Virus record (IMG/VR): IMGVR_UViG_3300042465_004839
Span: 9,170-73,169 of that record
Length of the DNA: 64,000 nt
Reading direction: 5' to 3' (one strand)
DNA from: a virus
The translations under genes were made by a program, and so were the position numbers. The notes beneath the pieces were generated by a model. The model saw nothing but the letters and a program-made list of their open reading frames with translations, was not told where the DNA came from and searched no databases. Within the stretch, counting starts at the first letter, position 1, and every line of letters starts with the position of its first letter. Below, piece by piece: positions 25,229-47,915 of this stretch.

Positions 25229-25843
25229 ATGGCTATACCATTAATTATACCGATAGTAGGAGCAGCAATGCAAGGTTTGGGTATGTTGGACTCTTATCAA
25301 AAAGCACAGGCACTTAGAGGCAAGGCTTCACAATTAGCAAATCAACCACTTCCAGAGATAACTCCAACAGAGCAAACTAATGAGCAATTTAGAATGGCAA
25401 CTGCTGGGGTAGCTAATCCACAAGGATATAGTGGAGCAGAAACTTCTAAATTTCAAAACAGAATGGCACAAATACTTGCTACACAACAATATAATGCTCA
25501 AAATATGGGCGGTGGAGGTAGAGCAATTGGGGCAATTGGTAATGCTAATGCTTTTAATGCAAATGCTGACTTTGCTGCTTCTGATGCAAATTTAAATAGA
25601 AGTCAAAAAAATATGGCTCAAAGCAGATTAGGTAGAGTAGTAGAGGATATTCAAAGAATGAAAAATCAACAAACTGCTTACTTACAAAATAGAAGACAGC
25701 AAACTGAACAAGCATTAGGAGCAGGTATAAGAAGTCAAGAAGATTACTTAAAAGGCACATTAATGAATATGGGTTCAGATATGCTATCGGCAGGATTGTA
25801 TCCTAAATTAGGAACTACAACTACAACTACAACAAAATTATAA
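25229..25843 (+). CDS. putative internal virion / DNA pilot (ejection) protein
   Basis: Hydrophobic Gly/Ala N-terminus, Q/A/N-rich, no Cys; own TATATTTG promoter near 25199. Confidence 0.65.
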   Translation: MAIPLIIPIVGAAMQGLGMLDSYQKAQALRGKASQLANQPLPEITPTEQTNEQFRMATAGVANPQGYSGAETSKFQNRMAQILATQQYNAQNMGGGGRAIGAIGNANAFNANADFAASDANLNRSQKNMAQSRLGRVVEDIQRMKNQQTAYLQNRRQQTEQALGAGIRSQEDYLKGTLMNMGSDMLSAGLYPKLGTTTTTTTKL

Positions 25844-27341: not shown

Positions 27342-30300
27342 ATGCCAGATAAAATAAAAGAAGCATTTACTGCTATAAACGACAAAGAATTATTTTTAGA
27401 CGAACAAGACTTTAGGGATAATGTAATGAAAGACCCAAAAGGAACATTTGAAGCATTAAATAATTATGGTAAAACTAAAGGATTTTTTTTAGATTATGGA
27501 GATTTTGAAAGTGCTTTAGATTTAAAAAAAAAAGAGCCTACAGCACCATCTATACCAAATTTTTCAACAAGTTTGGGAGGGGATATGCAACCTTTGCCAA
27601 GTGGTGCAAAAAATATTTCCCAATCACCATTACAATCGAATATAAAAACAGAGTTTCCGACATACATTGACCCTACAAAACCTTTAAAAACAAAAGAGGT
27701 TATAGATGTAAATGCGGAGAAGAAACCTTTTGATAGTGAAGTAATAAGAAAAGAAAGAGAGGTAAGATTAGGTACACATAGAGAAAAGATAATGTCTTCT
27801 ATTGTTAAAGAACCTGACTTATATACTAAAAAAGCATCTAAGTCACATTATGGAACTATAGCAGTACCAGAAATGCCTAACATTGATAACATATCAAAGG
27901 CAATAGATTACTATGCAACAAAATTAGTTAAACAAGGTGAATACCTTAGCCCACTTGATAAACAATATTTAGTAAATAGTGTTGCTCAACAAGTAAAACA
28001 AAGGAAAAATATTGCAGATGCAGCAGCAAATGCAAGTCTTAGAGCAATAAACAGAAAAGAATTACCTGAATACGCTTACACAGGCGTAACTAATGCTAAA
28101 GGAGAAGTGTTAGTAAAAGGACTTTTTCAAGAAGCAAACGAAAAAATAATCAACGAACAAAATAAGGAAGTTGACAATTACAAAATAAATTCTGAAAATT
28201 TAACAAAAACAGTAGCAACAGAAGTTGCCCCAGAAGTAAATGCTTTAAAACTTGATGTTAAAGCCAAAGCAGAAATATTAAATCAAGAGGTAGAAACTGC
28301 TTTTAATAAATCATTTAACGAAAAAGACAAAGCTATGTATGACCAATACAATCAATTGGTTCAAAGTGGGCAAATGACTCCTGATGTAGCAAATAATGCT
28401 TTAAAAATAAAAAGAGAAGAATTACAAAAGCAGACACAAGCAGAGATAAGTGCTGCCTATGCTCCTAAGTTTGATGCATTAAATAAAGAATCTAACTTAA
28501 AATCAAAAGACATACAAAGTACATATAACAGAAACTACTTAGCAAAAGCAAACTTACTAAAAGAAACTACTAACAAAAAACTTCAAGAAATAGCCCAAAA
28601 AAATATGGTAAATATGCCTAAAGGGTATATGGAAAGATGGGCAAAGGATTTTCAAGAAAGTTTAGCTGAAATAGAAAAGAAAAACGTAAATCAAGCTTAT
28701 TTAGATGCTAAAAGAATGCCAGCAGAGGCAAGATTAGCAAAAGCAGTTTCTTTTGGGTTTGGTAATGTATTAGGCTCAATAGGAGGGGCTATGTCATTTG
28801 CAGGATTAGATGCAAGTGCAGTAAACGATGTAGTTATTAAAACTACAATGCAAAATGAACTTACAAGTAGTGCGTATTACCGAATTAAAGATGAAGAAGC
28901 AAAAGCAAATGGAACTCCACACGCTAATTTTGTAGAGAAACTTTCTGATCCTTCTTGGTGGTATGATAATATGGGAAGTACCGCACCATTTATGTTAGTA
29001 ACTATGCCAGTAGGTATAGCATCAGGTTATGGGGCAGGCTCTATAGCAAAATTATTAGGAGCGAGTAAAAGAGCAACAGCTATTGCAAGTGCAGTAGGTG
29101 GTGGTGCAGTAAGTTGGTATGGAGAAAACACATTAGAGGCAGGAAGTGCATTTAACGATGCTATTAATCAAGGGTACTCAGAAAACGATGCATCAGAAAT
29201 AGCAGCAAGAACATTTAGAAATAACATAATAACATTACCTCTAAGTGTATTCCAGCTAATGCCAGTATTTAGTAAATCATTTAAATTTACTAAAGCATTA
29301 CCGTTAGAAATAATTTCTGGAGGTGTTGAAGAAGTGTTTCAAGGTTGGTCACAAGCTGAAGCAAATGCAGCAGCAAATGGGTATGATGTAAGTTTATTTG
29401 AGTATGCTAAAACCCCACAAGCATTAGAGGAGGGAACTATTGGAGGTGCGATGCAAGCAGGTATGGCAATGTTTGCATTAAATGAAACTCCAAATATTGA
29501 CAAACAAATATCTGCATTAATGAGTTCTATAAGTGTAGGTGGCGAACAGTATGCAAGAGCAGTATTGGATGTAATGAACAAGAATCAAGCCATTACAGAT
29601 GCTGAATTTAAAGAAGCTAACCTACAAATAGACTACATCTTAAATGGTATTGAAAGTGTTCAAAACTTTAATGTAGACGACAATTTAAAGGCAGGATTAG
29701 TAGGTAAATTTGCTAAAATAGGCAGAGCAAAGGCATTAATTACAGATGATGAGAATGACTTGGCAAGTCAAGCTGCAAAAGAAATGATTGCAGAGCAAGA
29801 GAAGGATATAAAAGAAATTTTAAAAGGTAATACACCTTTATATTTAGTATTCCAAAAAGGGAATCCAATACCAACTTTAGCAAGTGAAGAGCAGTTTAAC
29901 ACAATACTAAAAGACCCAAAACTAAGAGAGGAATTTACATTACAAGCAATAAATGATGATGCATTGCAAAGTAAAATAGATGAAACATATAAAACAGGAG
30001 TAGTAACAGAAGAAGAAACAATAAATGCAGAACAAGAAATTATACCAGCAACTGAAACCCCTGCTGCACCACCTAGCGGTGTTAGTGGTGAGGTACAGGC
30101 ATCTGGTGATGTAGAAGCAAATATAGCCAACAGAAAAAGAAAAGATTTATTCCCTGACAAATCAAGATTTGCTAATGACGTAGGTCAAAGTGGAGAAAAC
30201 TCTCAAATATCATCATACAAAGAAGTAAATGGAATTGGATTATCAGAATATTCTAATCCTAAAAATGGTTTAGTAGATGTTATAATGACAGGAACTTCTG

Positions 30301-33300
30301 ATAATGATTATGTTGGATACATAAGAATATACGAAAACGGCAAGCCAACAAATAGATGGACATCTAAAATGTCAAACAAATCTGGCAATAAAGGCAACTT
30401 TAAAACCATGATAACAGAAGCTCAAAAATTACTTCCAGAGGGTCACGAATATACTGAAACTACAAATATATCTTTAGATGGTTTAAGGGTTTATGCTAAC
30501 AGTTTAAGCAGAGATTATGAAATAGCTACTGATGAAGATGGAAAACCTATAACAAATAATGTTGAATTAAATAATGCAACATTAGCAGCACTACAAGGCG
30601 CAAAAAATCAACAAGAAACTGAAGATTTGTTTGACACTAAACGAGGAATTACAAGAGATGAATTTAATCAAATAAAAGAGCAAGTAAATAAATTATTGCC
30701 AAATACAAGATTATTATTTGACACGGCAAATGGAATTGTAACAATACAATTACCTGTACTAAAATCAACTAAAAAACAATTAACAACTAACGAACAACAA
30801 AAAGCATCTAAAAAAGTTGCTGAAGTAACTCCTAAAGAAGGCGACAGCGTTATTATAAAATCACGTTTTGGTCGTGATGAAAAGTTGGTATTTAATAAAG
30901 GAGAGTGGAGAGTACAATTTGGTAAAGATGAATTTAGTGATATTGGTAAGGCTGCTCAACAAGAAGCTCAAGATGCATTTAATAAAAAGAATGAACCTGT
31001 TGCTGAGGTTAAGGAACAAGCACCTGTAGTTAAGGAACAAGCTCCTAATAGGGCAGAAGGAAATGTTAAAGTAAAATCTTTTAAACAAGGAGATGGCGGA
31101 ACAAAAGGAGTTTTTGAAGGAGAAGATGGTAAACTTTATAAATCTATTGAGCCACAAGAATCAGTTCAAGACAAAGAAGGAAACTTTAAGCGTCAAACCA
31201 TTAAAGATACACTAACAGACGAGCATAAAATATTGTCTGAACTTCAAGATAACCCTCATGTACCTAAAGTAGGTAAAATTGTAGATACTACGGAAGGCAA
31301 AGCTTTTGAAATAGAAAAATTAGATGAAGTTGATACTTTTACTAAAGATGAGTATAGGGAAATTCAAAAAATACTAAATGACTTAAACGACAAAGGTTAT
31401 CATGTAGGAGATAGAGTTACTGTTATGAAACGCCCAAAAACAGGCGAACTTGTTATTATTGATTTTTCTGCTGGGTACAAAGGAAGTAGAATGTCAAGAG
31501 ATGCCGATGAATATATGGGTGACGTAGCAAAGAAACTAAGTAAATCTGATGCTATAAATATTAAATTAGAAGACTTGTCAGAAATAAATAGAGAACAAGC
31601 AGATGCTTTTTTTGACAAAGAATCAACTACTGAATACTACTTAACACAAAGACCTCCAAGCATAGGAACACACCCAACAGAAGGATTATTATCGGTTAAC
31701 GAAGCAGAATATAGAAACAGAAAAAATGTTTATATACTTAAATATGATAGAAAACTTACACCAAACGAAATAGCTAACTTTGAACTAACTCCTAAAGTAA
31801 CAAATAAAGAATTTTTAGGTCAAAAAATATTAGGTGTATATGGTAAAGTTCCATTTTATGTAACTAAAATAGATTACAAAAATGGAACTGTAAAAATGGC
31901 TGCGGAGGTAGTTGGAAAAGAAGTAGAAAAAGAAATTTCTTTTAGGGAGTTTAGTAAAAATATAGACGAAGGTAAATATAAAGTAGAAACACCCAAAGAA
32001 GAAAAACCTGTTAAGGAACAAAAAGAGCCTGTTAAGGAACAAACTGAAAAAGAAAAGGCTAAAGAAAAGGCTAAGGAAGAATTAAGAGCAAGAGCAGCAA
32101 AAGCTAAAGCTGAGGCTATTAGTGCTGCACAAAAAGTTCAACAAGCATTAGAGGCAACAGGAATAACTGTTGAAGTAGTTGATAGTGAGCAAGAGTTCCA
32201 AGATAAATTAGATGCTGAGGGTGTTAATAGAGCAAGTTCAGCAGGTAAAAGCGGTGTATTTATATCTAAGTCAGGTAAAATATTTATTAACGGTAGCAAG
32301 GTTGATGCTAACTGGGGTAGTGTAGATGTATGGCACGAAGGAACTCACCCTATTATTAACATAATAAGGAACACAAACCCTAAACTATACAATTCAATAA
32401 TAGATGGACTAAATAAATTAGTTACAAGTAATCCAGAGATTGCTGATGTTTTAAAGTGGGCGCAAAAAAATTATAAAGGCAAAAACACTTTAGAGGATGA
32501 AACTATAACTGAAACCATAGCAAGAATAGCAAATGGCAATATAGATATATCAAAGATACCTACATCATTAAGAGATAAGATAATAGATTTCATTAATGAG
32601 ATTGCTAAGTCATTAGGAATAAAACCTATGTTCAAAAGTTCTAATGTTGCAACATTTAAAAAGATAGCAGGCGAAATATCTGCTGCACTTAAAGAAGGTA
32701 AAGATATTAGTAGTATAGTAGGTGCAGAAAATGTTAAGAATTATGAGTCAAAAATAACAATAGAAGACTCAGAGTCTTATGTTAAAAAAGCAAATGAATC
32801 AGAAACATCAGAAGGTATTAATAATGAAAATATATCTATTAGCGATATAAGCGGTAACTCTAGAAAAGGCATTCAGTTTTCAAAAGGCAAGGAAAGAACC
32901 GAAGAGAAAGCTAAAGAAACAGTTGAAGATAAAATCAAGGCAGAAACAATAAAAGCAGTAAAAAAATCTATATTAGACTACAAAAGTTTAAAAGGTAAAA
33001 TATCAAGAACACTATTTTATGATAACACAAGGGTTGGTTCTTTAGAAATAAAAAACAGAATTACAGGATACACTCCACCTGTTATGGGTAAGGGTGGCTT
33101 CTTTTATTCTTATATGCCTAGTTCTTTAAAAAATAAAGCAGTATTAGCATTTACAAGTATTAACCAAGCCATACAAACCTTAAAGAGGCAAATGCTATAC
33201 CCTGATGGGTTACAGGCTATTGCTGCTCAAAATTTTCAAACTGCACATCTTGGGAATAAGTCTACCTTAGAAGCATTGTTTGGGAAAAGTGGTTCTGAAA

Positions 33301-36300
33301 ATTTAGGCATATTTCAAGACTCTGTAAAAGATGTAAAAAACAATCCGAATGGGGAAGCTGAGTTGCTAGAAACATTGAAAAAAGCAACAATAGATATTGC
33401 CAATCAAAAAGTGCAGTCAGGAGTTAATGAAGGCAAGCCAACGGCATCAGCAGAAGAGATAAAAAAAATAATAGAAAGAAATGGAGGAAATTTAGATGGT
33501 ATAAAATCACTTGATGATTATAGGGATAAAGTTTTGACATTTACAGGAGGTGACTCATTTGGAGCAAGAAATATATTATTTACTGAAGTACTTCAAGAAA
33601 AACCAACAAAAATAACTAAATCCACAAGGGAATCTCACCAAATAATACATTATAAGTATGGCATTCCTACCTTATCTGAAATAGCCGAAGGTAATAATCA
33701 AAGTGAACTAAATAATGCCGAAACAGGAGATGTTGTTAAATTTGTAAAGCCATACACAGACCCTGTTGTATACACTACTGACAAAAAAATATATAAACAA
33801 TACTCTGAAAATCCAACGCCTGAAATGGTTGAGAATGGCATTAAAATAAAGTTATTGCCTAAAGATGCTGCACACGAATCTTATGCTTTTGTTTTAAAAG
33901 GTGAAAACGTAGGTTTGTTAGACAACTACATTTCAGCCACTCAGTTATATGAAAAAAATGAAAAAATAGCCAACACCCCTAAAAAGCAAAGTTTTTATAA
34001 AGTGGGAAGGATGCCTGCAAATGCAGAGGCTGGAGTGTATCCAGAAAACCCCATTGCTCAGGGAAAGGCTCAATACTCACAAGGGAACAGAGATGCTGTT
34101 GCAAATAAGAATACAGAAAAAAATAATATTATAATAAAAGATAATAACATAGAGGGCAAACTTCTTAACAATCAAGAGTCACAAAAATTACAAAAAGAAA
34201 TTGAATCTAAATATAATGACTCAGGAATACAAAAATTTGGACAAGAAAATGAAGATATACGTCAGAATTTATATAACTATGATAACCCATTAGCAGAAAA
34301 AGATGTAAATGGGATTAATATAAGAATTGCAGAGGGATTATTAGAGGGAGATAAATATTCTGGAAACAGGAAAAAAACTTATTTGTTATATGCAGATGGT
34401 AAGATAGCAGGTAAATTCTATTCTGTAGCAGATGCAAAAAAAGTTGTAAGTTTTATTGAGCAAAACTTAATAAAACCAAAATCATTAGCACCAAGTAATC
34501 CTCAATACTCTCAAGGTAACAGAGATGCTGTTGCTAATGAAAACTTAATAAATGGATTCTATTCACCATTAGAGAAAACAATTAACGATTCTAAGCAAGA
34601 TAAGATGCCTGCTAAACAATGGATAGAAAAGTTTGCTAAAGGTGAAGAAGCTAAATGGACAGGACTAACTGATTGGTTAAGCTCTCAAACAGGCTCGGTA
34701 TCTAAAGCAGATATTCAGCAATACTTAAAGGACAATAGAATAGAAATTGAGGAAAAAGTTAAAGGAAGTTCTGATTGGATTAAAGAAGGTAAATCATATT
34801 TTTCACAAAATAAAAAATATGAAATAAGAGATTTAGGTGATAATGAATATACAGTAATTAAAGATGGCAGATATAATTTAGGTAGTCGTGATGGTCTTGA
34901 AAGGGCTAAAGAACTTGCATTTGAAGATGGATATTCAAATGAAGAAGATATAAATAATGACACTAACTTTGGCAACCGACCTGATTTACAATTAGAAGGA
35001 GAGAAAGAAAATTACAAAGAGATATTGGTGACGTTGCCAAATAAAGAAGCAATAAAAGAATCTGAAATTGAAGAAAAAAGACGAAAAGCTGGAATTATGG
35101 ATAATTTTAACTTTGAAACAATGGGTTATAATGATACTCGAAATGTTCCAAAGTTTGTATCATCTCACTTTGATGAACCCAACATACTCGTTCATTTAAG
35201 GATGAATACTCGTATAGATTCAAATGGTAATAAAGTATTGTTAATTGAAGAAGCACAAAGCGATTGGGGTCAAACAGGGAAAAAGAAAGGGTTTAAACCA
35301 ACTTTTGAAATTAGAAACGAAAAAGGTATGTTCAATGTTTATTCTTCTGTAAACAATATGAAAGAACCTGCATTTTCTTTTGATACAAAGGAAGATGCAA
35401 ATAAAATGCTTGAAACTTTAAATAAAACAAATGAAAGTAAAGTTCCAACTGCACCATTTGTAATGGACACAAATGCATGGGCTAAACTTGGTTTAAAGGT
35501 AGCATTAAAAGAAGCAGTTGCACAAGGAGTTGATAAGATTGCTTGGACTACTGGAGAGCAACAAAATGATAGGTATGATTTAAGCAAACAAGTTGATGAA
35601 ATCAATTACAGTAAAAATTCAGATGGAACTTATGATGTATCCGCCAACAAAAATGACAACCAAGTATTTGACAAGTCTTACATAAAAGAAAATGAATTAG
35701 AGGGAATAGTAGGCAAAGAAGTTGCTCAAAGAATAATAAACAATGAGGGTAAAGAACCGGTAAGGGGTAGTGGTAATTATAAAAAATCATTAAGTGGTGA
35801 TGGATTAAAAGTTGGCGGTAAAGGAATGAAAGGCTTTTACGGATCACCAACAGAAGGTAAATTAGGTATAGTAGGTGAGGTTGCTAAGAGTTTGTTTAAG
35901 CAAGAACCGAAAACGGTAAGTATAGAAGGAATATTAAGTTTTAATGTTTACGATAATAAAGATGGGAATTTGCAAGGTAATTTTGCCGACTTTAATTCTG
36001 CAAAAGAATTTGCAAAAAAAATAGATGGTAGTGTTCAAAAAACAAATATTTCAACTCAAAATTCAATAGACATAACACCAGAGTTAAAAGCACAAGTTGA
36101 AGAAGGTCTGCCTCAATTCTCGCAAGGGAGTAGAGATATACAATCTCTTGTAGATATAATTACAGAAACTCAAGAAAAAGGACAATTAGATGATAATGAA
36201 ATAGCAGAAACTTTAGAAGCTTCTTACTCTAAAGAAGAAATTCAAGAAGCATTTGATTATATCAATAACCCACCTATAAATGAGCCTACTGCAACAGAAA

Positions 36301-36581
36301 CTGTAGAACCATCTAAAGTTGAATCTGAAAAAGTAGTTAATTCATTAAACACAGCAGAAGTAGAGGCGGTAGCAAAAGCTTTAGCAAAGGAAGAAAAGAA
36401 AGGATTTGATAAAACCAATAATACCGAAAGGAATAATGCAAGGAATAAAGAAGCAGAAAAGGAATTAAAGGATTTGGAAAATGCTGCTACCGTACTTGCT
36501 ATAACTCAAAATATAAATGAGATTAGAGCAAAATTACTCGAAAATGGTAACATAAAAACTATTGACTGTAAATGGGGATAA
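27342..36581 (+). CDS. giant polyvalent cargo protein (membrane-type N-terminal region, GNAT-like, kinase-like, DarA_C-like, zincin peptidase, further modules)
   Basis: 3079 aa; Gly/Ala hydrophobic segments ~aa 470-720; kinase-like HVGD...IIDFS; RPPSIG...YDRKLT..EI..FEL; HEGTH; IEEAQSDW module. Confidence 0.8.
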   Translation: MPDKIKEAFTAINDKELFLDEQDFRDNVMKDPKGTFEALNNYGKTKGFFLDYGDFESALDLKKKEPTAPSIPNFSTSLGGDMQPLPSGAKNISQSPLQSNIKTEFPTYIDPTKPLKTKEVIDVNAEKKPFDSEVIRKEREVRLGTHREKIMSSIVKEPDLYTKKASKSHYGTIAVPEMPNIDNISKAIDYYATKLVKQGEYLSPLDKQYLVNSVAQQVKQRKNIADAAANASLRAINRKELPEYAYTGVTNAKGEVLVKGLFQEANEKIINEQNKEVDNYKINSENLTKTVATEVAPEVNALKLDVKAKAEILNQEVETAFNKSFNEKDKAMYDQYNQLVQSGQMTPDVANNALKIKREELQKQTQAEISAAYAPKFDALNKESNLKSKDIQSTYNRNYLAKANLLKETTNKKLQEIAQKNMVNMPKGYMERWAKDFQESLAEIEKKNVNQAYLDAKRMPAEARLAKAVSFGFGNVLGSIGGAMSFAGLDASAVNDVVIKTTMQNELTSSAYYRIKDEEAKANGTPHANFVEKLSDPSWWYDNMGSTAPFMLVTMPVGIASGYGAGSIAKLLGASKRATAIASAVGGGAVSWYGENTLEAGSAFNDAINQGYSENDASEIAARTFRNNIITLPLSVFQLMPVFSKSFKFTKALPLEIISGGVEEVFQGWSQAEANAAANGYDVSLFEYAKTPQALEEGTIGGAMQAGMAMFALNETPNIDKQISALMSSISVGGEQYARAVLDVMNKNQAITDAEFKEANLQIDYILNGIESVQNFNVDDNLKAGLVGKFAKIGRAKALITDDENDLASQAAKEMIAEQEKDIKEILKGNTPLYLVFQKGNPIPTLASEEQFNTILKDPKLREEFTLQAINDDALQSKIDETYKTGVVTEEETINAEQEIIPATETPAAPPSGVSGEVQASGDVEANIANRKRKDLFPDKSRFANDVGQSGENSQISSYKEVNGIGLSEYSNPKNGLVDVIMTGTSDNDYVGYIRIYENGKPTNRWTSKMSNKSGNKGNFKTMITEAQKLLPEGHEYTETTNISLDGLRVYANSLSRDYEIATDEDGKPITNNVELNNATLAALQGAKNQQETEDLFDTKRGITRDEFNQIKEQVNKLLPNTRLLFDTANGIVTIQLPVLKSTKKQLTTNEQQKASKKVAEVTPKEGDSVIIKSRFGRDEKLVFNKGEWRVQFGKDEFSDIGKAAQQEAQDAFNKKNEPVAEVKEQAPVVKEQAPNRAEGNVKVKSFKQGDGGTKGVFEGEDGKLYKSIEPQESVQDKEGNFKRQTIKDTLTDEHKILSELQDNPHVPKVGKIVDTTEGKAFEIEKLDEVDTFTKDEYREIQKILNDLNDKGYHVGDRVTVMKRPKTGELVIIDFSAGYKGSRMSRDADEYMGDVAKKLSKSDAINIKLEDLSEINREQADAFFDKESTTEYYLTQRPPSIGTHPTEGLLSVNEAEYRNRKNVYILKYDRKLTPNEIANFELTPKVTNKEFLGQKILGVYGKVPFYVTKIDYKNGTVKMAAEVVGKEVEKEISFREFSKNIDEGKYKVETPKEEKPVKEQKEPVKEQTEKEKAKEKAKEELRARAAKAKAEAISAAQKVQQALEATGITVEVVDSEQEFQDKLDAEGVNRASSAGKSGVFISKSGKIFINGSKVDANWGSVDVWHEGTHPIINIIRNTNPKLYNSIIDGLNKLVTSNPEIADVLKWAQKNYKGKNTLEDETITETIARIANGNIDISKIPTSLRDKIIDFINEIAKSLGIKPMFKSSNVATFKKIAGEISAALKEGKDISSIVGAENVKNYESKITIEDSESYVKKANESETSEGINNENISISDISGNSRKGIQFSKGKERTEEKAKETVEDKIKAETIKAVKKSILDYKSLKGKISRTLFYDNTRVGSLEIKNRITGYTPPVMGKGGFFYSYMPSSLKNKAVLAFTSINQAIQTLKRQMLYPDGLQAIAAQNFQTAHLGNKSTLEALFGKSGSENLGIFQDSVKDVKNNPNGEAELLETLKKATIDIANQKVQSGVNEGKPTASAEEIKKIIERNGGNLDGIKSLDDYRDKVLTFTGGDSFGARNILFTEVLQEKPTKITKSTRESHQIIHYKYGIPTLSEIAEGNNQSELNNAETGDVVKFVKPYTDPVVYTTDKKIYKQYSENPTPEMVENGIKIKLLPKDAAHESYAFVLKGENVGLLDNYISATQLYEKNEKIANTPKKQSFYKVGRMPANAEAGVYPENPIAQGKAQYSQGNRDAVANKNTEKNNIIIKDNNIEGKLLNNQESQKLQKEIESKYNDSGIQKFGQENEDIRQNLYNYDNPLAEKDVNGINIRIAEGLLEGDKYSGNRKKTYLLYADGKIAGKFYSVADAKKVVSFIEQNLIKPKSLAPSNPQYSQGNRDAVANENLINGFYSPLEKTINDSKQDKMPAKQWIEKFAKGEEAKWTGLTDWLSSQTGSVSKADIQQYLKDNRIEIEEKVKGSSDWIKEGKSYFSQNKKYEIRDLGDNEYTVIKDGRYNLGSRDGLERAKELAFEDGYSNEEDINNDTNFGNRPDLQLEGEKENYKEILVTLPNKEAIKESEIEEKRRKAGIMDNFNFETMGYNDTRNVPKFVSSHFDEPNILVHLRMNTRIDSNGNKVLLIEEAQSDWGQTGKKKGFKPTFEIRNEKGMFNVYSSVNNMKEPAFSFDTKEDANKMLETLNKTNESKVPTAPFVMDTNAWAKLGLKVALKEAVAQGVDKIAWTTGEQQNDRYDLSKQVDEINYSKNSDGTYDVSANKNDNQVFDKSYIKENELEGIVGKEVAQRIINNEGKEPVRGSGNYKKSLSGDGLKVGGKGMKGFYGSPTEGKLGIVGEVAKSLFKQEPKTVSIEGILSFNVYDNKDGNLQGNFADFNSAKEFAKKIDGSVQKTNISTQNSIDITPELKAQVEEGLPQFSQGSRDIQSLVDIITETQEKGQLDDNEIAETLEASYSKEEIQEAFDYINNPPINEPTATETVEPSKVESEKVVNSLNTAEVEAVAKALAKEEKKGFDKTNNTERNNARNKEAEKELKDLENAATVLAITQNINEIRAKLLENGNIKTIDCKWG

Positions 36582-36627
36582 AAATGAAAATTAGGAATTT
36601 ATTGTTAAAAATAGGTATATTTGCAAT

Positions 36628-37116
36628 ATGAAATACGAAATACCAAAGAAGGCAATGGCAATTGTAGATAGTTTAGCAAAATTAGAGTTAGGGCAAACCT
36701 CTTTCTATAAAAGACTTGCTCAACAAGCTAACAAAACAGGCTTTCTGTTAGCAGAAAAATACTTTGTAGCAGAAAGTATAGAAGAGAATGAACACTTTTT
36801 AGGATGGCAAAACTATGTTAATGGTAGAGGAAATGACTTTTCCATACCAAGTATTGAAGAGTATGATATAGAGGCTAAAGACTTAACTGAACTAATAAAC
36901 CTAAGTTTAGAGAAAGAGATAGATGTTAGTATGGCTTACAACGAAGCGTACAGCGAACTGTTATCATTAGATGTACCAACTGCTATAAAAGTAACAAAAT
37001 ACATTAAAATTCAAACATTAGCAGTAGCAATATACAAAGACTACGCAGCAACATTTAGTGGATTAGACAAAAGTGGACAGTTAGTAGCTGAACACACTAT
37101 TTTTGAGGAAAACTAA
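36628..37116 (+). CDS. ferritin-like protein
   Basis: E..Y in helix A, ESIEENEH (ExxEExxH), EKE, IQ; 162 aa. Confidence 0.8.
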   Translation: MKYEIPKKAMAIVDSLAKLELGQTSFYKRLAQQANKTGFLLAEKYFVAESIEENEHFLGWQNYVNGRGNDFSIPSIEEYDIEAKDLTELINLSLEKEIDVSMAYNEAYSELLSLDVPTAIKVTKYIKIQTLAVAIYKDYAATFSGLDKSGQLVAEHTIFEEN

Positions 37117-37140
37117 TAACACATTACAATTTTTAATAAT

Positions 37141-37187
37141 GCTCACCATGCCTCTCAACGATGCACACTTTGGTGGGCTTTTTTTTT
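37141..37187 (+). terminator. intrinsic terminator of the ferritin cassette (large structured loop)
   Basis: GCTCACCA...TGGTGGGC followed by T9. Confidence 0.7.
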
Positions 37188-37234
37188 GTTATAAAAAAGA
37201 CTAAATTTGTTACTTTAAATAAACATAATAATCA

Positions 37235-40200
37235 ATGGCTTGTAATATAAATTATACCCCTATTGGGAAGACAGAACCTATAAAACTTACTGAAGCAGAG
37301 TTTATTGTATACCTTGCAACGCCAGATGAGAATGGAGAAACAGAGTATCAACGACTACTTGATGCAGGAATAGATTTACCTAAAATAACCCAACCAAAAG
37401 CAACTAAAAAAGAAGCTGAACCTGTTCAAGAAGGCGAGAAGAGAGAAAAGTCTGTACTAAATAAATTTATGAATAGTACAGCAGGATCTAAGTTTAAGAA
37501 AGACATAGAAACTTTAGGTTTAGAGTATGTAATAAAAGACCAAGCAGCAGCAAACGAGTACGCCCAGTACCTTTATAATAACTTAGGTTTTGCAGAAGCA
37601 TTAAGAGAGGCTACTTACAATGATGTTAAAACATTAGTATTTGGGGCAGCAATAGATGACTTATCAAAGAAAATAGAAACAGCAACAGGAAAAGAGTTAG
37701 CAGACTTAGAGGCAGAACGCAAGAAGGTAGTAAATGAGTTTGATGAGTTTGCAAGAGATTTAGGTAGAGGAGTAGCAGCAATAGGCTACTGGTATCTAAA
37801 CAATGCATCGGCAATTGAGTTTATGCTAAAAAGACAGATAGAGAATCAAGCTAAAGAAATACTATCACCAAAAGGACAAAAAGCAAACGAAACATTACAA
37901 CACAAGTTAGACCAAGTAAGTAAAGAGTTAGCAGATTTAAAAGCAAGTGCAAGTAGTGAGGCAGCAGCAAGGGCAGCAGCAAAAGCAGAGAAAGAGGCAG
38001 GTATAAGTATAGAGAAAGAGTTAGCTAAAAAGGATGGTATTGGTAAAAATGCTACTGAGGCTAAGAAAAAGCAAGTAAGAGATTTTATGAGTAAGTTTTT
38101 GGTTGATGAATCAAAACCTTTAAGTAATAAAACCTTTTCAACAATACTTCCTGTCAATGTTATAATTGACCCTAAAAAGTATAATAAGTTTATAGAGTTT
38201 CTTACAAAGCGACTTGAGGATGGAGTTGATATTCAAATGGCAATATCACAAGCATCAACAGATATGTTACTCTTTGCAAAAAGTAAGGAAATAAAAGATA
38301 TTGTAAATCTTTTTAATAAAAAAAGAAAAGAGTCAACTAACGAAAAACCTAAATCAGAACTACAGGAACAAAGAGAAGCTGCTAAAAAAGCATTTTACGA
38401 TATAGCTAATATGGGCAAGAAAGCTATGCGTGGAGAGATGACTCCTAAAGAATACAAACAATTTATAGAGGAGTTACTACTATCATCTGATGAGATACAG
38501 GCAAAAAGCAAGCAAGACTTTATAGATAAACTAACAGCAAAATTAAAGGAGTACGGAATAGAAAATGCAAGTGAGTATGTAAAAATATTTGTTGCTGAAA
38601 GAGAGGCTATTATTAATCAGAAAGCACAACAAATATTAGACAGAACTTTTAAGGGAATAAAAGATAAGTTAAGTGGAACATTTTTCCCAAGCAGAAAGAA
38701 AATAGAAACTCAAAGAATAATGGAGGCTATTATGTATGGCGCATTACAAAATGAGGACTATGCTAAATTATTCTACGAAAAGTACGGTATAGTAGATGCA
38801 AACGACCCACAAGTAGCAGAAAAATTAAAGGAACTTACAGAAATGTATAAAAATGCTACTACACCATTCTACAAAGAAATGGTATTAGCAAGGGCTGCTG
38901 GATACATTGGGTACATAAAAGCTAAAAATAAAACTTTAGGAGCTTGGTTAAACTATTTCTACAATAATATTTTACTTCATTACGATACTATTTTCAAAAT
39001 GATAAAGTTTAACGTAACTGCAAAGTTAGGAGGTACAGCGATGTTAATGGCAAAGAATCCTTACAATGCTATGTATTTTGCAAAAAAGATGTTTACAAGG
39101 AGTGGACTAAACTTTAGTAGGTCTTTGGCAATGGCAGAAGCAGCTTTTAGAGATAAGGTAAACATGAAGTTTGACTTAAAGGATAACGATGCAATATTAA
39201 ACTTAAAAGACTATATAGGTAATAAGTTTAAAAGATTTGTTCAATCTTTTAATAGAATGGCATCAAGAAGTTTAGGAGGCGGTGATGCTTTGTTTAGTTC
39301 AGTTGCAGCAGAAGCAAAATTAACTGAACTGTTATTTAACGAGTTTAGTAAAGAATTAAAGGCTAAAGGTATAAAGTTAAGCAAAAAAGAAACACAGGCT
39401 CTTATAAACGATATAATGGGTCACGATGCAGTAATTATAGATGCTATAAACGAGCAGTCAATAAAAGATGCATTAGCATATTATAATAAGAATAGTTATG
39501 AGGAATTAACTGCTGATGAAAAGCATGATGTAAAATTAAATACATTGTACACCTTGAATAAAAGAATGATTACAAGGGGTGCTGAGTTAGCAACAGAATT
39601 TGATTTAGCAAATATTAATGCACAAAGCATAATGATGGATAAGGAAAGAGCTGACAAGTGGGCTAAGACATCAGTAATGTACGGTAGACCAGAAGGAACA
39701 GTTGGACTTATTGCCGATGTAATAGGAACAGTAGGGGAAGGATTACAATGGTCAAAACCATTCTTTGCAACTATTATAAATGCACCATTGAATATGCTAA
39801 ACTTATATATTAACGGATCACCTTTAGGTATTGCAAGGTTAGCACTTAACTTATCAAGAAGTAAGAGAGGATTATTCTTGAGTGATGCATACATTAAAAA
39901 GCATGGGTTAGAGGCAGGAGTAAACATTACACCTGACCAAAAGAAGGAAATGATTATAAGAGTTGCTGCTGCACAGTTGTTAACAATTGGTATTTGTGCT
40001 TTACAGGGAGCTTTTGATGATGATGATGATTTAGAAGAAGAATGGAAAAAAGGTACATGGAGAGATAGAAAATTATATATAACAGCCGACTTGACAGGTG
40101 ACTACAAAAAGAATGAAACATTAAAGAAGACAGCAGGCGGTGCAGGATTAGAGGAGTACTCTGTGTATGCATATGGTCGAAAGGTTTGGGATTATAAAGA

Positions 40201-41356
40201 TGATTTTAGTGGAATATTCTTTTTACAGTCAGGTATTTATATGGATGCAAGAAGAAGTGGCAGAATAAATAAAGATAGAACTTGGGCTGATAAGTTACTT
40301 GCAGCACAAATGTTAGAAATAGAAGCACTAAAGGATATATCTTCATTAAAATCTGTAGCAGAAACTATAGATGTAGTTTTAGGTGGTGGAAAGTATAAAG
40401 GGGAAGAGTTAAATATTACACAAAGAATGAAAGACCATTGGGAAACATCAATGGCTAAAACTATAACAGCAGGAGGATTCCCAGCAGGTAGGATGTGGCA
40501 ATCAGCAATTGAAGACTACAGAGGTTTAACATCTCAAGATAAAAAAGAACCTTACGGAGTTTTAGATAAATTAAAAGGAATGGTAGCCTTACAAGAAGAT
40601 TTAAGAACTAAAACAGACTTCTTTGGTAGACCAATAAAAGAAAGATTTAAAGTAGCATCACCTTTAGCAACTAACTTTGTAAGGCAAACTCCTACAAACG
40701 AATGGTTGATATTATGGCAAAAGGCAAAACTGTCAGACCCTTTATTTACGTTATTGGCTGAACATGATTTTAATGAAATAAAACATAAGCTTAGAACAAA
40801 TCAAGCTATGACAGACTTAGGTAAGTACGGAATAGGTAAGATAGACCTTACACAAAGACAGATAGATGAGATAAATGAGGCAAGGGGTAAAGCACTTTTA
40901 ACATTCCTATCAGACCCAACTAATTTTGAGGCAATGGATATGCTTGACGACAAAGAATTTGCAACAGTAGCAACACTTGTACTAAATACTGCAAATAGAA
41001 ATGCATTCCAAAAAGTAGTAGAAGGCAAAACAACAAACACGCTATCAACAGGATACATAGAGGCACAAGAGCAGGCGGACTTGAAAGAAATTGATGCTAA
41101 AATGAAGAAGGCTAAGGAAGAAGTTATTGCTGAAGAAAAACGTATACAAAGAAATCGTATCACTCAAGAAGAGTTAGACTTTAGTAAAAAAGTAGGAAAG
41201 GGTGACTGGGATAGAAGAAAAGATTATTTCATACTTGACTTACAAAACAGCAATTCTCCAGAAAGCCAAATAAGAAGGTGGACAAAAGGATTTGGCGGTA
41301 CAGATGATATTACAGTAACCGAAGCAGAAGATTTAAGAAAACAATTAAAAAAATAA
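37235..41356 (+). CDS. large internal virion / cargo protein
   Basis: 1373 aa, helical; hydrophobic segment followed by DDDDD; KTDFFGRPI near C-terminus; begins MAC. Confidence 0.7.
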   Translation: MACNINYTPIGKTEPIKLTEAEFIVYLATPDENGETEYQRLLDAGIDLPKITQPKATKKEAEPVQEGEKREKSVLNKFMNSTAGSKFKKDIETLGLEYVIKDQAAANEYAQYLYNNLGFAEALREATYNDVKTLVFGAAIDDLSKKIETATGKELADLEAERKKVVNEFDEFARDLGRGVAAIGYWYLNNASAIEFMLKRQIENQAKEILSPKGQKANETLQHKLDQVSKELADLKASASSEAAARAAAKAEKEAGISIEKELAKKDGIGKNATEAKKKQVRDFMSKFLVDESKPLSNKTFSTILPVNVIIDPKKYNKFIEFLTKRLEDGVDIQMAISQASTDMLLFAKSKEIKDIVNLFNKKRKESTNEKPKSELQEQREAAKKAFYDIANMGKKAMRGEMTPKEYKQFIEELLLSSDEIQAKSKQDFIDKLTAKLKEYGIENASEYVKIFVAEREAIINQKAQQILDRTFKGIKDKLSGTFFPSRKKIETQRIMEAIMYGALQNEDYAKLFYEKYGIVDANDPQVAEKLKELTEMYKNATTPFYKEMVLARAAGYIGYIKAKNKTLGAWLNYFYNNILLHYDTIFKMIKFNVTAKLGGTAMLMAKNPYNAMYFAKKMFTRSGLNFSRSLAMAEAAFRDKVNMKFDLKDNDAILNLKDYIGNKFKRFVQSFNRMASRSLGGGDALFSSVAAEAKLTELLFNEFSKELKAKGIKLSKKETQALINDIMGHDAVIIDAINEQSIKDALAYYNKNSYEELTADEKHDVKLNTLYTLNKRMITRGAELATEFDLANINAQSIMMDKERADKWAKTSVMYGRPEGTVGLIADVIGTVGEGLQWSKPFFATIINAPLNMLNLYINGSPLGIARLALNLSRSKRGLFLSDAYIKKHGLEAGVNITPDQKKEMIIRVAAAQLLTIGICALQGAFDDDDDLEEEWKKGTWRDRKLYITADLTGDYKKNETLKKTAGGAGLEEYSVYAYGRKVWDYKDDFSGIFFLQSGIYMDARRSGRINKDRTWADKLLAAQMLEIEALKDISSLKSVAETIDVVLGGGKYKGEELNITQRMKDHWETSMAKTITAGGFPAGRMWQSAIEDYRGLTSQDKKEPYGVLDKLKGMVALQEDLRTKTDFFGRPIKERFKVASPLATNFVRQTPTNEWLILWQKAKLSDPLFTLLAEHDFNEIKHKLRTNQAMTDLGKYGIGKIDLTQRQIDEINEARGKALLTFLSDPTNFEAMDMLDDKEFATVATLVLNTANRNAFQKVVEGKTTNTLSTGYIEAQEQADLKEIDAKMKKAKEEVIAEEKRIQRNRITQEELDFSKKVGKGDWDRRKDYFILDLQNSNSPESQIRRWTKGFGGTDDITVTEAEDLRKQLKK

Positions 41357-41369
41357 CTATCTTTGTAAC

Positions 41370-41993
41370 ATGACAGGAGCAGAAATATACGGAATATTAG
41401 GAGCATTATATGACTTTCCTATGAACGGGATTATACCAAAGGCAAAGGTAAATCAACAGTTAGTAATGATTCAAGCAGAGTACTTTAAACCTATGTTTAA
41501 ATTATTTGGTGAGAATGGTGAAATAAATGGTGAGTTAGAGCCACTAATGAAAACATTTTCTGTTGCAACACCTACTAATAATAAGGTATCTAAAACAGCA
41601 AGTATGGTAGACTACTTTGCTTTAATAGGTATTGATGCAACATTTGCTGTAAACGGTAACAACTACACAAATACTGCTGCTCCTTTACCACCAAACTCAA
41701 TGACCAATAGTTTCAGCAATGGAACATTTTTGTACCCTAAGTACTATATAGTAAATGATGACATAATAATATACCCTAAAAACATTCAATGCACATTAGC
41801 AGAGGGCAACTATTTTAGAACACCATTTACCATAGATGTAACAAATAGTGGTACACAGATACTTTATAACATTAACACAGTAACAGGAATAGTAAGACAG
41901 TTACTTTCAAGTTACGGATTAAGTTTATCAGACCCACGTTATCAACAATGGGAACGTGAAATTATGCAAACAAATAACACCGTAATTAAATAA
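41370..41993 (+). CDS. putative head-tail connector / ring protein
   Basis: 207 aa; YPKYY...IIIYP...YFRTP pattern of podovirus ring proteins. Confidence 0.55.
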   Translation: MTGAEIYGILGALYDFPMNGIIPKAKVNQQLVMIQAEYFKPMFKLFGENGEINGELEPLMKTFSVATPTNNKVSKTASMVDYFALIGIDATFAVNGNNYTNTAAPLPPNSMTNSFSNGTFLYPKYYIVNDDIIIYPKNIQCTLAEGNYFRTPFTIDVTNSGTQILYNINTVTGIVRQLLSSYGLSLSDPRYQQWEREIMQTNNTVIK

Positions 41994-42868
41994 TGGCACT
42001 ACTACCAAAAATAAACCTATACCAAAACAGCGAAGATAATTCAGTTGTAGAAATACTTGATACAACAGGTCTATACGCAACAAATAATATTGGAGGATAC
42101 AATTCACCTAATTTATCTATATCAAGTGCTTACGGAGTATTAAGAGTAGGAAACTACCTAAGCTTACAGAACCTTAATATTTTAAGTAGTGGTAACTTAA
42201 CTCAATACAAAGAGTACATTAAAACAGCAGGCACTAATAAAACATACGATAACAAAGTATTAGTAGTAGGAAGTGTGTTCACACCATTTATAAGTGTAGC
42301 AGTACAAAGTGGCGATACATTTGAAGAAACTGGGTATTACTACTCACCACTTGGAACATGGCTACCAAGTGTAACTACTCCAATATACTTGACAAGTCAG
42401 AATTTAGGTTTAGGTGCAAGTGATGTAATAACCGATACGATATTCCCAATAGAATATAAGGTGTACGGTGCAATACTAACTAACCCTACAACAACAGTAG
42501 GAACAGAGTACTTAGTACAAAGTAACTCAACAACGTGGGGTGGAAACACATACCGCAAAGGAGAACTATTTATAGCAAGTGCAGCAAGTGCAGTTGTAGG
42601 AACAGTAAGTCCTTACGCAGGAGGTTACTACAATACTTTCCAGACATCGTTCAATATTAGTCAGCAATTGAAGGATTTAATTGTGAGTAATATTAACAAT
42701 CCTAAACCCAAAAACGAACAGTTCCAAATGGAGATAGCAAGACTATACTCAAGAATAGAGGCAATGAACTGGAACAACGGATTAGGTAATGTAAGTCAAA
42801 CAAATGCTTACGATAACATACAAGACATAGCAAACACTTGTACAGCATTAGCAACTAATAATTACTAA
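41993..42868 (+). CDS. virion structural protein (tail hub-like), paralog of 51583-52449
   Basis: DTTGLY...GGY start; collinear similarity to 51583-52449. Confidence 0.55.
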   Translation: MALLPKINLYQNSEDNSVVEILDTTGLYATNNIGGYNSPNLSISSAYGVLRVGNYLSLQNLNILSSGNLTQYKEYIKTAGTNKTYDNKVLVVGSVFTPFISVAVQSGDTFEETGYYYSPLGTWLPSVTTPIYLTSQNLGLGASDVITDTIFPIEYKVYGAILTNPTTTVGTEYLVQSNSTTWGGNTYRKGELFIASAASAVVGTVSPYAGGYYNTFQTSFNISQQLKDLIVSNINNPKPKNEQFQMEIARLYSRIEAMNWNNGLGNVSQTNAYDNIQDIANTCTALATNNY

Positions 42869-45770: not shown

Positions 45771-47915
45771 TTATTGTATATTATTTTGATTTTCTTGTTC
45801 AAGCATTTGTTGCATTAATTTACTGTCAAGTTCTGCATCTTTATTTTCCATACTTGCAGCAGCACCTGTAGCAGCTATATTTTGTTGTGCTTGTGCCTGC
45901 ATTGCTGAATTAGCAGCAGCAGCATCTTGTTGTTGTTTAACAGCAGCCTGTTCAGCTTGCATACGAAGTAGTGCCATATTATCAAGTATTTCCTCTACTG
46001 CATCAAGAGTTTCTGCTCTCATTATCTTAATAAACTCACGTTTAGCGTCAGGATTAACACCTGCCTCTTGAACAGTAATTTGAGATAATGTAGCCTTAAC
46101 TTGTTCTGTTAACTGACTATCAAAATCAAATCTAATTTCAAAGTCATCATTAAGCATTTCTTGTACTGAATCCATTTTAAGTAATGTAGCAGCAGTATCA
46201 CCTATTTGTAAACTGAATGCTCCCTCATCTTGGTCAGCAAGTACTAACCTTGTCTTGTCAACCCCTAAAGATATTACATCTTGAAAGAAGGTAGTTAATC
46301 CACCGTATAGCCATTGTGTACCTGTTTCGGCACTAAGTATATTATTCTGTAATTGAGCCTCACCAACGTAAGTAGAAGAACCTAATCTTGACTGTACAGG
46401 CATATTAAGTACATCAGCAAGTACATTATCCCAATACTGTAGTTGTCCTAAGTATAATTGAACATTAGGGTCAACAGTCATATCAAGAATTTCAATCATC
46501 TTGTTAGTCTTTTCTTGTCCTGCCTCTACCTCTGTTCTGTTACCTACTAGTATACCTTGCTGTTTCATCATAGCAAGCATATCGGGAGTTTTCATAAAGT
46601 CAGGCAACTGAGATGTATCTACGAAAGGAATCTTACCCATTGCCCTTGCAAGCATACCTTGCATAGTAGTAGTTAAGGCATCTTTCATATCTTGAATCTT
46701 GTGTACAAGCATTACAACGCCCATATTACTACCAAGTAACGTGAAAGGAGTAAAGGCACAAAAATCTAATCTACGTCTTGACTTATCTCTCTTATCAGAA
46801 ACACTATTAGCTTTAATACCACAGTTTCTTAAATATTTATTTCCAATTAATTGTCCTTGTCTAATACACTCTACAGGTACACCATCAATATAAGTAAGAG
46901 AACGCCACTCAACATCTGCTACCCATACTTTAGGCACAGTAGTCATGTTAGAGTACCAATTAATAAAATTCCATCCTTGAACGTAAGGAGCTTGTGCATT
47001 ACCAGTATTCATAGCAATTGCCTCTAAGTCCTTTACTTCTTCTGATGTAAAATCAAATCTTGCAACAATATCAGCAACTGAGTAAGGTTTAAACTCACCT
47101 GCTAAAGCATCATTAATGTGATGGTCTTCGTTACGAGTCATATCAATAATAGCGTATTCAGGTTCTACAACCCTCATATAAACTCTACCTTTACTTTCGT
47201 AAATTCTAATTAAAGAACGACCTCCGATAAAACAATACTGAGCAGCTTTCAAGAATAAATCAAAGTAACGATTACGATACAAGAAGTCTTTACCTAAGTT
47301 TCTATAAGCAAACTCCATTTCATCCATAAAAGTTTTAAAGTACTTTTGGATACTCATCTCATCGTTAATGTTTAAACCTTGAGGTATTTCTAACTCAATA
47401 TTACCTAACTCTTTTTCGTATAATAAAAACTCTTTAGCATCTACAACTGACTTTAATACATTTAATTTTAAAGCTTTCCTACTTAATATTCCTTCGCTAA
47501 TACCATTAGCTTGAAGTATTTTAGGTAGTGGCTTAAATTGTTGGCGGCACTTACCATCAAAGTAACGGAACATAGCAGATATTTCAAGTCCACGCCACAT
47601 TGGTATTTGAGTGGCAGCATTTGTCGCATCCTTAGAAGCCCATTCGTATTCAGTATTGTACTGCAATCCGTAAATGTAACGAGCAGCAAATACATATTGG
47701 TCTATAAATCTTGTGTTTATTCTATCGTAAGGGTCACCAATAGCACCTCTCATTTGAGTAGAAACAATTGGCTGATTGTAAGAAGTACCTACAATCCATC
47801 TAATATTTTTAGCATAATCAGAGCCTTCCCACTCTCTTCCATCGTTAGATTGATTGGGCTGTATTGAAGGAGAAGCCCCTCCTGATATAACTGAATTTAT
47901 TAGTTTCATTTTCAT
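45771..47915 (-). CDS. portal protein
   Basis: 714 aa directly after TerL; helical, Q/A-rich C-terminal barrel; LNMPVQSRLG. Confidence 0.8.
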   Translation of the reverse strand: MKMKLINSVISGGASPSIQPNQSNDGREWEGSDYAKNIRWIVGTSYNQPIVSTQMRGAIGDPYDRINTRFIDQYVFAARYIYGLQYNTEYEWASKDATNAATQIPMWRGLEISAMFRYFDGKCRQQFKPLPKILQANGISEGILSRKALKLNVLKSVVDAKEFLLYEKELGNIELEIPQGLNINDEMSIQKYFKTFMDEMEFAYRNLGKDFLYRNRYFDLFLKAAQYCFIGGRSLIRIYESKGRVYMRVVEPEYAIIDMTRNEDHHINDALAGEFKPYSVADIVARFDFTSEEVKDLEAIAMNTGNAQAPYVQGWNFINWYSNMTTVPKVWVADVEWRSLTYIDGVPVECIRQGQLIGNKYLRNCGIKANSVSDKRDKSRRRLDFCAFTPFTLLGSNMGVVMLVHKIQDMKDALTTTMQGMLARAMGKIPFVDTSQLPDFMKTPDMLAMMKQQGILVGNRTEVEAGQEKTNKMIEILDMTVDPNVQLYLGQLQYWDNVLADVLNMPVQSRLGSSTYVGEAQLQNNILSAETGTQWLYGGLTTFFQDVISLGVDKTRLVLADQDEGAFSLQIGDTAATLLKMDSVQEMLNDDFEIRFDFDSQLTEQVKATLSQITVQEAGVNPDAKREFIKIMRAETLDAVEEILDNMALLRMQAEQAAVKQQQDAAAANSAMQAQAQQNIAATGAAASMENKDAELDSKLMQQMLEQENQNNIQ

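Follow-up and report, generated by a model that had tools for sequence, protein, structure and literature searches.

The stretch of DNA analysed here, referred to throughout as the window, consists of 64,000 nucleotides (nt) from a 73-kilobase virus contig with 32% G+C (IMG/VR record IMGVR_UViG_3300042465_004839, positions 9,170 to 73,169). It encodes two neighbouring giant proteins of 3079 and 1373 amino acids (aa), p3079 and p1373, which carry a cysteine at each of the two ends that face one another: Cys3076, the only cysteine of p3079, and Cys3 of p1373. In related phages such a reciprocal pair of terminal cysteines accompanies the division of a giant protein into two genes. We propose that the pieces are packed into the virion, probably rejoined end to end by an inter-chain disulfide between Cys3076 and Cys3, threaded in order, and set free by reduction in the host. 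Coordinates are collected in the table of the last section.

Terminal cysteines and their reciprocal partners

Why would proteins that are nearly devoid of cysteine keep one at each of two facing ends? The translations on which our counts are based were made anew from the window sequence. Five genes lie consecutively on the plus strand, with open reading frames (ORFs) of 204, 496, 3079, 162 and 1373 aa, and the 204-, 496- and 162-aa products have no cysteine at all. In p1373 the only cysteine besides Cys3 is Cys921 (codon 39995-39997); the ATG at 37235 is the earliest start that is possible downstream of the preceding stop.

Homologues of p3079 share a core of about 520 aa. Among 120 listed homologues, the window's own included, which measure 1,721-4,960 residues and in many cases have differing Pfam domains outside this core, 353,299 residues contain just 91 cysteines. 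Fourteen of the 91 belong to one protein, P0087, which was kept in the counts. No fewer than 59 of the 91 lie at most eight residues from a terminus, compared with about 0.5 expected under a uniform spread; 24 are found in the first eight residues and 35 in the last eight. Counted by protein, 32 homologues have a C-terminal cysteine only, 22 an N-terminal one only, one has cysteines at both ends, two combine terminal and internal cysteines, 13 have internal ones only and 50 have none. The counts are inflated by kinship, since many of the 120 proteins are relatives of one another and the 59 terminal cysteines do not represent 59 independent events. The sequences of the chain ends differ widely. 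The stub that follows a C-terminal cysteine is mostly 0-4 residues long (once 6), and N-terminal cysteines occupy positions 3-9. All seven homologues of p1373 start with M-[A/P/S]-C, at identities of 21-45%. The giant cysteine-poor proteins of related loci have a cysteine content of 0.026% (77 in 295,996 residues), as opposed to 1.14% for 894 comparison ORFs of the same loci, some of which are spurious. Judged by these distributions, the placement of terminal cysteines in the family is not a matter of chance.

Could the partner of each terminal cysteine be found next door? We collected 80 loci that surround core homologues and predicted their ORFs with a basic script that sets starts by a simple rule. 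Another scan, in which a different first sequence served for the ranking, yielded 42 fresh loci, which brings the collection to 121 distinct loci (L053 and L054 are the same sequence, and L054 was set aside). Whenever a core-bearing giant of the first 80 loci ends in a cysteine, the next large cysteine-poor protein starts M-x(1-4)-C; whenever such a giant starts with a cysteine, a large cysteine-poor protein upstream ends in one. This amounts to 16 adjacent reciprocal pairs in 15 loci, plus the window. Locus L026 encodes a chain of three giants, in which the first ends ...ITCN, the second runs from MAC... to ...NCKL and the third starts MAC.... The fresh loci contain three split pairs (L100, L116 and L130), and the cysteine pair is present in all three. 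Over the 121 loci, each of the 17 complete core proteins with a terminal cysteine (at the C-terminus in 10, at the N-terminus in 6 and at both ends in 1) has a reciprocal cysteine-poor partner, and 71 of 71 complete core proteins without a partner piece have no terminal cysteine. A further 33 core proteins are cut short by a contig end on one side or on both. Locus L039, with a frameshift inside the core, was set aside, and P0078 was dropped as an example of a terminal cysteine because its tail is probably frameshifted. Splits and cysteine pairs thus occur together, and this rule is a direct observation.

An earlier interpretation of the window, made without database searches (the sequence-only reading), had reported the cysteine positions of both giants and the absence of cysteine from the two proteins upstream, and the independent translation confirms these counts. 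It had also held that facing terminal cysteines are hard to explain by chance, a view borne out by the enrichment at chain ends and by the uniform M-[A/P/S]-C starts. Conservation in homologue pairs, which it had named as the way to check the idea, is what the locus survey found: 17 of 17 with a partner, and no terminal cysteine in the 71 that have no partner piece.

Probable fission of a single giant

Is the cysteine pair located where a single protein was divided in two? In locus L029 the first piece ends ...EKGLITKKGNCP, directly before its stop codon, and the second starts MASPCIITFEGKKY...; the two pieces align, with 56% and 76% identity, to one contiguous stretch of P0024, a protein of 3582 aa with no cysteine. 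At the junction P0024 reads ...EKGLISSDG-KK-VVYEGKSY..., and we observe that both L029 cysteines map on the two-residue KK linker. P0013 is a second example of this. The N-terminal 220 aa of p1373, for their part, match inside unsplit giants, for example at residues 2750-2919 of the 3886-aa giant of L023 and at residues 1630-1794 of P0107. From the linker mapping and these internal matches it follows that the cysteine pair sits exactly where the peptide bond is missing. The alignments support the view that p3079 and p1373 are two pieces of a giant that is a single chain of 2,000-5,500 residues in many related phages, and lend weight to the suggestion of the sequence-only reading that an ancestral single gene was split.

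The cysteine pair is found at no fewer than seven junctions of unlike sequence context, and in low-GC as well as high-GC lineages. On a FastTree phylogeny of the core (185 rows, 166 of them with known state) the terminal-cysteine state changes 41 times, which suggests repeated origins of this state, with tree error and domain shuffling inflating the figure of 41.

Paired genes are separated by -1 to 3108 nt, and in several cases by 0-59 nt. Because pairs exist with gaps of -1, 0, 8 and 59 nt, an intron, bypassing by a ribosomal hop, or read-through is ruled out as the general cause of the split. Split inteins were considered as well. These have Hint-fold fragments on either side of the break and an N-intein, at least about 25 residues long, that starts with Cys1. 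The giants resemble split inteins in that a protein is encoded as two separate halves with a cysteine on both sides of the break; they differ in that fused homologues are free of cysteine at this position. We rejected a split intein, since only three residues follow Cys3076, no Hint or intein match was obtained with Pfam, and the fused homologues have no cysteine at the joint. The cysteine is 0-6 residues away from the chain end, too few to accommodate an intein fragment.

In the window the gene that separates the two giants encodes a ferritin-like protein of 162 aa. Its score against Pfam family PF00210 is 24.6 bits, next to a cut-off of 24.5. A profile built from 12 members of its family matches ferritins in the PDB over positions 6-161, that is over the full length, with an E value of 5.7e-24. 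Residues E20, E49, E53, H56, E97 and Q129 are invariant in the 12 members, and we take these carboxylate, His and Gln ligands to be those of the ferroxidase centre. The profile matches identify the protein as a genuine ferritin of bacterial type. Among the first 80 loci, to which this count is confined, ferritin homologues occur in 11 (L002, L006, L007, L014, L019, L029, L030, L031, L050, L057 and L081), besides the window. Nine are located between the halves of a giant and two, in L006 and L007, after unsplit giants. The ferritin gene is thus found at the split in nine of the 16 cysteine pairs, and the remaining seven pairs have none. An obligatory partnership of ferritin and cysteine pair is ruled out by these seven pairs and by the two loci in which the gene lies beside an unsplit giant. 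The sequence-only reading had cast the ferritin cassette as the element that splits the giant gene; this agrees with the nine pairs, and fails for the seven others and for the ferritin genes that follow unsplit genes. Being often at the split and yet dispensable, the ferritin gene, or gene insertion more generally, may have caused some of the splits, and it is not needed for the link. As to the presence of a ferritin in a cluster of putative cargo genes, the protein might handle iron, protect the DNA as it enters the host, or itself be packaged as cargo.

Two further observations concern the sequences between the pieces. The gap in locus L061 (10594-11364) holds an ORF of 256 aa with a weak NUMOD1 match below the Pfam cut-off, which hints at a homing-endonuclease-type insertion at the split. 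In the window, the spacer between the ferritin and p1373 genes (37117-37234) contains a run of ten T, followed by TAAATTTG; we presume the latter to resemble the -7 promoter element of Bacteroidota. A terminator scan of positions 36400-37400 returned none by its criteria.

A proposed disulfide joint and its alternatives

A bond of this kind has a structural precedent. As reported from cryo-electron microscopy of cyanopodophage A4, a disulfide connects Cys1715 of gp27 to Cys5 of gp26 in the pre-ejectosome (PNAS 2025, PMC12002296). A4 is Anabaena phage A-4L (Saffermanviridae), in whose record gp27 has 1717 aa and gp26 1114 aa, with one cysteine each. We found the pair kept in all six A4-type phages examined. 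In the five relatives of A4 (Pf-WMP3, Pf-WMP4, LPP-1, TR020 and CHP58), at 23-27% identity, the gp27 homologue has its cysteine 2-3 residues from the end and the gp26 homologue has Cys5 or Cys8. The resemblance to the window is considerable: the two genes are adjacent, have the same order as in the window and are preceded by two smaller cysteine-poor internal proteins. The sole cysteine of gp27 follows a long helix and is 2-3 residues away from the C-terminus, comparable to the sole cysteine of p3079 at residue 3076 of 3079, and the sole cysteine of gp26 at position 5 has its counterpart in Cys3 of p1373, a protein with one more cysteine at 921. In A4 the long C-terminal helix docks into the partner; a helix at aa ~3031-3067 of p3079 is predicted with a pLDDT (predicted local distance difference test) of 57-68 only. 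There are also clear differences. The window proteins have roughly double the length and are of the mosaic polyvalent class, and the ~520-aa core does not occur in A4. The bond has been observed in A4 virions, whereas in the window phage we infer it from sequence. Finally, the window clade has fused and split forms side by side, a topic that is not discussed in the available text of PMC12002296, and it is this coexistence that allows the cysteine pair to be tied to gene fission. By analogy, the window pair would work like the A4 pair; by sequence it is not a member of the A4 family.

Cargo of this size is also known from crassviruses. In PhicrAss001, large cargo proteins are described as stored in the capsid and having to unfold partly in order to pass the tail, and their order of exit is proposed to depend on mutual interactions (PMC10172136). 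The window resembles this phage in encoding a crAss-type muzzle protein. The disulfides reported for the crassvirus, in contrast, are in tail and portal-vertex proteins and not between cargo proteins (PMC10172136), and the word "cysteine" is absent from the main text of that article.

How might the joint operate? The pieces would be packed into the capsid and would leave it through the tail partly unfolded, ahead of the DNA or together with it. The C-terminal tail of p3079, with its long helix and Cys3076, would dock on a mini-domain at the N-terminus of p1373, in which Cys3 adjoins a beta-strand. In an oxidising medium, Cys3076 and Cys3 would then form the inter-chain disulfide. This bond would replace the lost peptide bond, so that the pieces would be packed one to one and could be drawn through the channel one after the other as a single thread, until the host cytoplasm reduced the bond and freed them. 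The near-absence of other cysteines would avoid cross-links that block threading. Cysteines within a few residues of the chain ends would keep the joint nearly linear, and the short stubs together with N-terminal positions of 3-9 fit such a joint in a narrow channel. In this scheme the packaging of both proteins, the bond itself, its timing and its role in ejection are proposals. A head-to-tail disulfide appears to be the best-supported reading. The link between facing termini that the sequence-only reading had put forward finds support in the pairing of all 17 terminal-cysteine proteins, in the KK linker and in the A4 bond, with a disulfide as its probable form.

Structure prediction with AlphaFold2 gives a sketch of the two ends. 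The helix of p3079 corresponds to residues 142-178 of a 190-residue construct and is followed by an unstructured tail of 12 residues that includes Cys3076. At the N-terminus of p1373, residues 1-49 have a pLDDT of 67-80, with strands at 4-7 and 16-19 and helices at 20-28 and 37-43. A prediction of the complex between residues 2960-3079 of p3079 and 1-160 of p1373, run with alignments of 10 rows and without controls, scored 0.29 and 0.23, next to a mark of 0.32.

Several points weigh against the disulfide joint. Both the bond and the packaging are predicted from sequence, in this phage and its close relatives alike, and confidence in the two terminal models is low (mean pLDDT 55.9 for p3079 and 53.9 for p1373). 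When every protein of the window and of the loci was searched with A-4L gp26-gp29 (jackhmmer), there was no match, and a comparison of the p1373 and gp26 families by hhalign gave a probability of 0.06%; with no detectable sequence or profile similarity to gp26-gp29, the A4 precedent is one of analogy. p1373 has a second cysteine, Cys921, common only to its two closest homologues. Both small proteins upstream are free of cysteine, which would place them outside any disulfide chain. In L100 and L130 the N-terminal cysteine is within eight residues of the start only if a later start codon is used, the ORF caller being a simple one. Among the loci examined, L003 has the single cysteine-free split (1149 aa and 731 aa); its pieces lie in different frames beside a G-run (9740-9800), and it could reflect a frameshift introduced by assembly or be a genuine exception. 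In cultured phages, a search with the core gave two weak matches only, and no cultured relative otherwise carries it.

What else could the two cysteines do? The pairing rule shows that they go together and leaves the type of bond undefined. They might join the pieces by a chemistry other than a disulfide, for example through a metal ion that both bind, possibly along with other ligands or another heterodimer, or through a thioester-based ligation that restores a peptide bond. The ferritin gene at nine of the 16 splits can be counted in favour of this, and the seven pairs that lack it and the ferritin genes behind unsplit giants count against it. Nor is there a conserved histidine or second cysteine beside the terminal one. 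The metal variant, which the sequence-only reading had named as an option, is neither borne out nor contradicted. Ligation would have to cope with a variable stub, mostly 0-4 residues and once 6, that is ill-suited to a precise enzymatic reaction; Pfam detects no Hint or intein domain, and the fused homologues are without cysteine at the joint. The A4 virion structure has a plain disulfide (PMC12002296), and we regard such chemistries as very unlikely. A bond to the neighbour is deduced and not directly observed, and each terminal cysteine might bond elsewhere: in dimers of like pieces (A-A or B-B), with a portal or tail protein, or, once injected, with a target in the host. Cysteine is indeed present in other virion proteins of the window, and several disulfides are reported to hold the crassvirus tail (PMC10172136). 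Independent partners would, however, not be expected to produce the strict reciprocity that is seen. C- and N-terminal cysteines co-occur in gene order and only at splits, without an orphan among the 17; the middle protein of L026 bears both; and both cysteines map on one linker of the fused form. Bonding elsewhere is an unlikely reading for these reasons.

It might also be argued that the terminal cysteines have no linking role and are a by-product of splitting, or an artefact that stems from the way genes were called and relatives counted. The relatedness of many of the 120 homologues does make the raw counts overstate independence, and start codons were set by a simple rule. P0078 ends ...SCPTSFDFC at a point where P0084, 94% identical to it, continues, which looks like a frameshifted tail. 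An artefact would nevertheless have to reappear in at least seven unlike junction contexts of both low-GC and high-GC lineages, and would have to leave the N-terminal cysteine in place in both homologue sets, that of p1373 (7 of 7 at 21-45% identity) and that of A4 (6 of 6 at 23-27%). Cysteine is otherwise almost absent from these proteins, at 0.026%, and the A4 bond is real (PMC12002296). That the cysteines are without function in linking seems to us extremely improbable.

How podophages achieve the ordered packing and ejection of megadaltons of protein is an open question. If the disulfide reading is correct, a single terminal bond would set stoichiometry and order in a simple way, act as a redox switch that frees the pieces in the host, and account for the extreme depletion of cysteine, explaining why injected giants are nearly free of it. 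That one family contains both fused and split forms amounts to a natural experiment, which supports the link. More generally, split giants that are injected may be rejoined by single terminal disulfides, guided by short docking peptides, and fired in order as one thread of thousands of residues, which reduction in the host cytoplasm would divide again; such a general rule could equally well hold or fail. Were it to hold, it would span unrelated lineages, namely the A4-type cyanopodophages and the Flavobacteriia-type clade of the window with its crAss-like muzzle. For annotation, a reciprocal pair of terminal cysteines offers an inexpensive way to recognise the parts of a single cargo protein in genomes of uncultured phages. 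The A4 bond is already in print; the rule that fission goes with reciprocal cysteines, in polyvalent giants, was not found in the literature searched, supplements being outside the scope of that search.

Protein families and gene neighbourhood

Features of the window discussed in the text (positions are those of the window; an empty cell means that no value is given)
Feature	Position	Strand	Remarks
204-aa protein	25229-25843	+	0 Cys; hydrophobic N-terminus MAIPLIIPIVGA; first in conserved order small/mid-size/giant
496-aa protein	25847-27337	+	0 Cys; second gene of conserved order
3079-aa giant polyvalent-type protein (p3079)	27342-36581	+	one Cys, residue 3076
DarA_C domain (PF18789), aa 1431-1484 of p3079	31632-31793	+	Pfam E 7e-9; 36.4 bits, curated cut-off 27
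Conserved core of ~520 aa, aa ~2400-2925 of p3079	34539-36116	+	common to all homologues
Predicted long C-terminal helix, aa ~3031-3067 of p3079	36432-36542	+	AlphaFold2, low confidence
Cys3076 codon TGT	36567-36569	+	fourth residue from the end; C-terminus ...KTIDCKWG, then stop
162-aa bacterial-type non-heme ferritin	36628-37116	+	between the two giants; 0 Cys; Pfam PF00210 E 2.6e-5
1373-aa second giant (p1373)	37235-41356	+	Cys3 and Cys921; corresponds to C-terminal portion of unsplit giants
Cys3 codon TGT	37241-37243	+	N-terminus MAC; adjoins predicted first beta-strand (residues 4-7)
Portal gene	45771-47915	-	phrog_6547
Large terminase gene	47955-49955	-	phrog_6681
1530-aa protein	58092-62684		crassvirus muzzle protein match, PF25731, E 4.4e-19

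With the last 500 residues of p3079 as query, at least 1257 homologues were found at E<=1e-3 (7985 candidates scored), and the core is also present in at least 553 stretches of viral contigs, confirmed by tblastn. Its motifs include NILVHLRM, EEVQSDWGQ, WTTGEQQ and KVGGKGMKGFYG. The core corresponds to no Pfam family, and together with the C-terminus it gave no match at E<=0.1 among PDB sequences. It is the one constant part in otherwise mosaic giants. Pfam families identified in the homologues include PF18760, PF18762, PF18763, PF18857, PF04002 and PF00176, which we read as typical domains of polyvalent proteins. Close relatives of p1373 were found neither in cultured phages (by tblastn) nor in viral contigs (by single-protein patterns), and searches of Pfam and PHROG with p1373 gave no match. 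When the seven proteins of the cargo region were searched against Pfam and PHROGs, DarA_C and Ferritin were the sole matches.

Phage polyvalent proteins were described by Iyer, Burroughs, Anand, de Souza and Aravind (2017, PMC5512222), who predicted that they are packed in the particle and delivered with the DNA. Like these, p3079 is a giant multidomain protein encoded beside virion genes, with a DarA_C domain, and the mosaic build of polyvalent proteins is matched by the window family, in which varied domains surround one shared core. That article proposes the release of domains by embedded peptidases; release by reduction is proposed here instead. Its main text does not contain the words "cysteine", "disulfide" or "split", and the terminal-cysteine rule and split forms are not part of its description. 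By its domain and family p3079 is a polyvalent-type protein, whose packaging and delivery we infer from gene position and family only.

The order of a small protein, a mid-size protein and a giant, the former two free of cysteine, recurs in related loci. Pfam and PHROG searches with the 204-aa protein gave no match. Counterparts of the 496-aa protein are 413-777 aa long (up to about 935 aa in high-GC loci), lie upstream of the giant in nearly all loci and have no cysteine in almost all cases; by gene position alone, the 496-aa protein is presumed to be an ejection or cargo protein. The two small proteins upstream of the giant have no cysteine in nearly every related locus.

By their terminases, the nearest cultured phages are Flavobacterium and Cellulophaga podophages with about 29% identity, and the crAss-type muzzle protein of the window sits in a 73-kb phage whose cultured kin are of this kind. 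Upstream of the cargo cluster, between 19562 and 23536, are genes for a 582-aa DNA methyltransferase, a serine-recombinase or invertase-like protein (22201-22872) and an HNH endonuclease (23054-23536). Downstream of p1373, a 207-aa protein (41370-41993) contains one cysteine, at residue 141, and a 291-aa protein (41993-42868) has its sole cysteine at residue 283, nine residues from the C-terminus.

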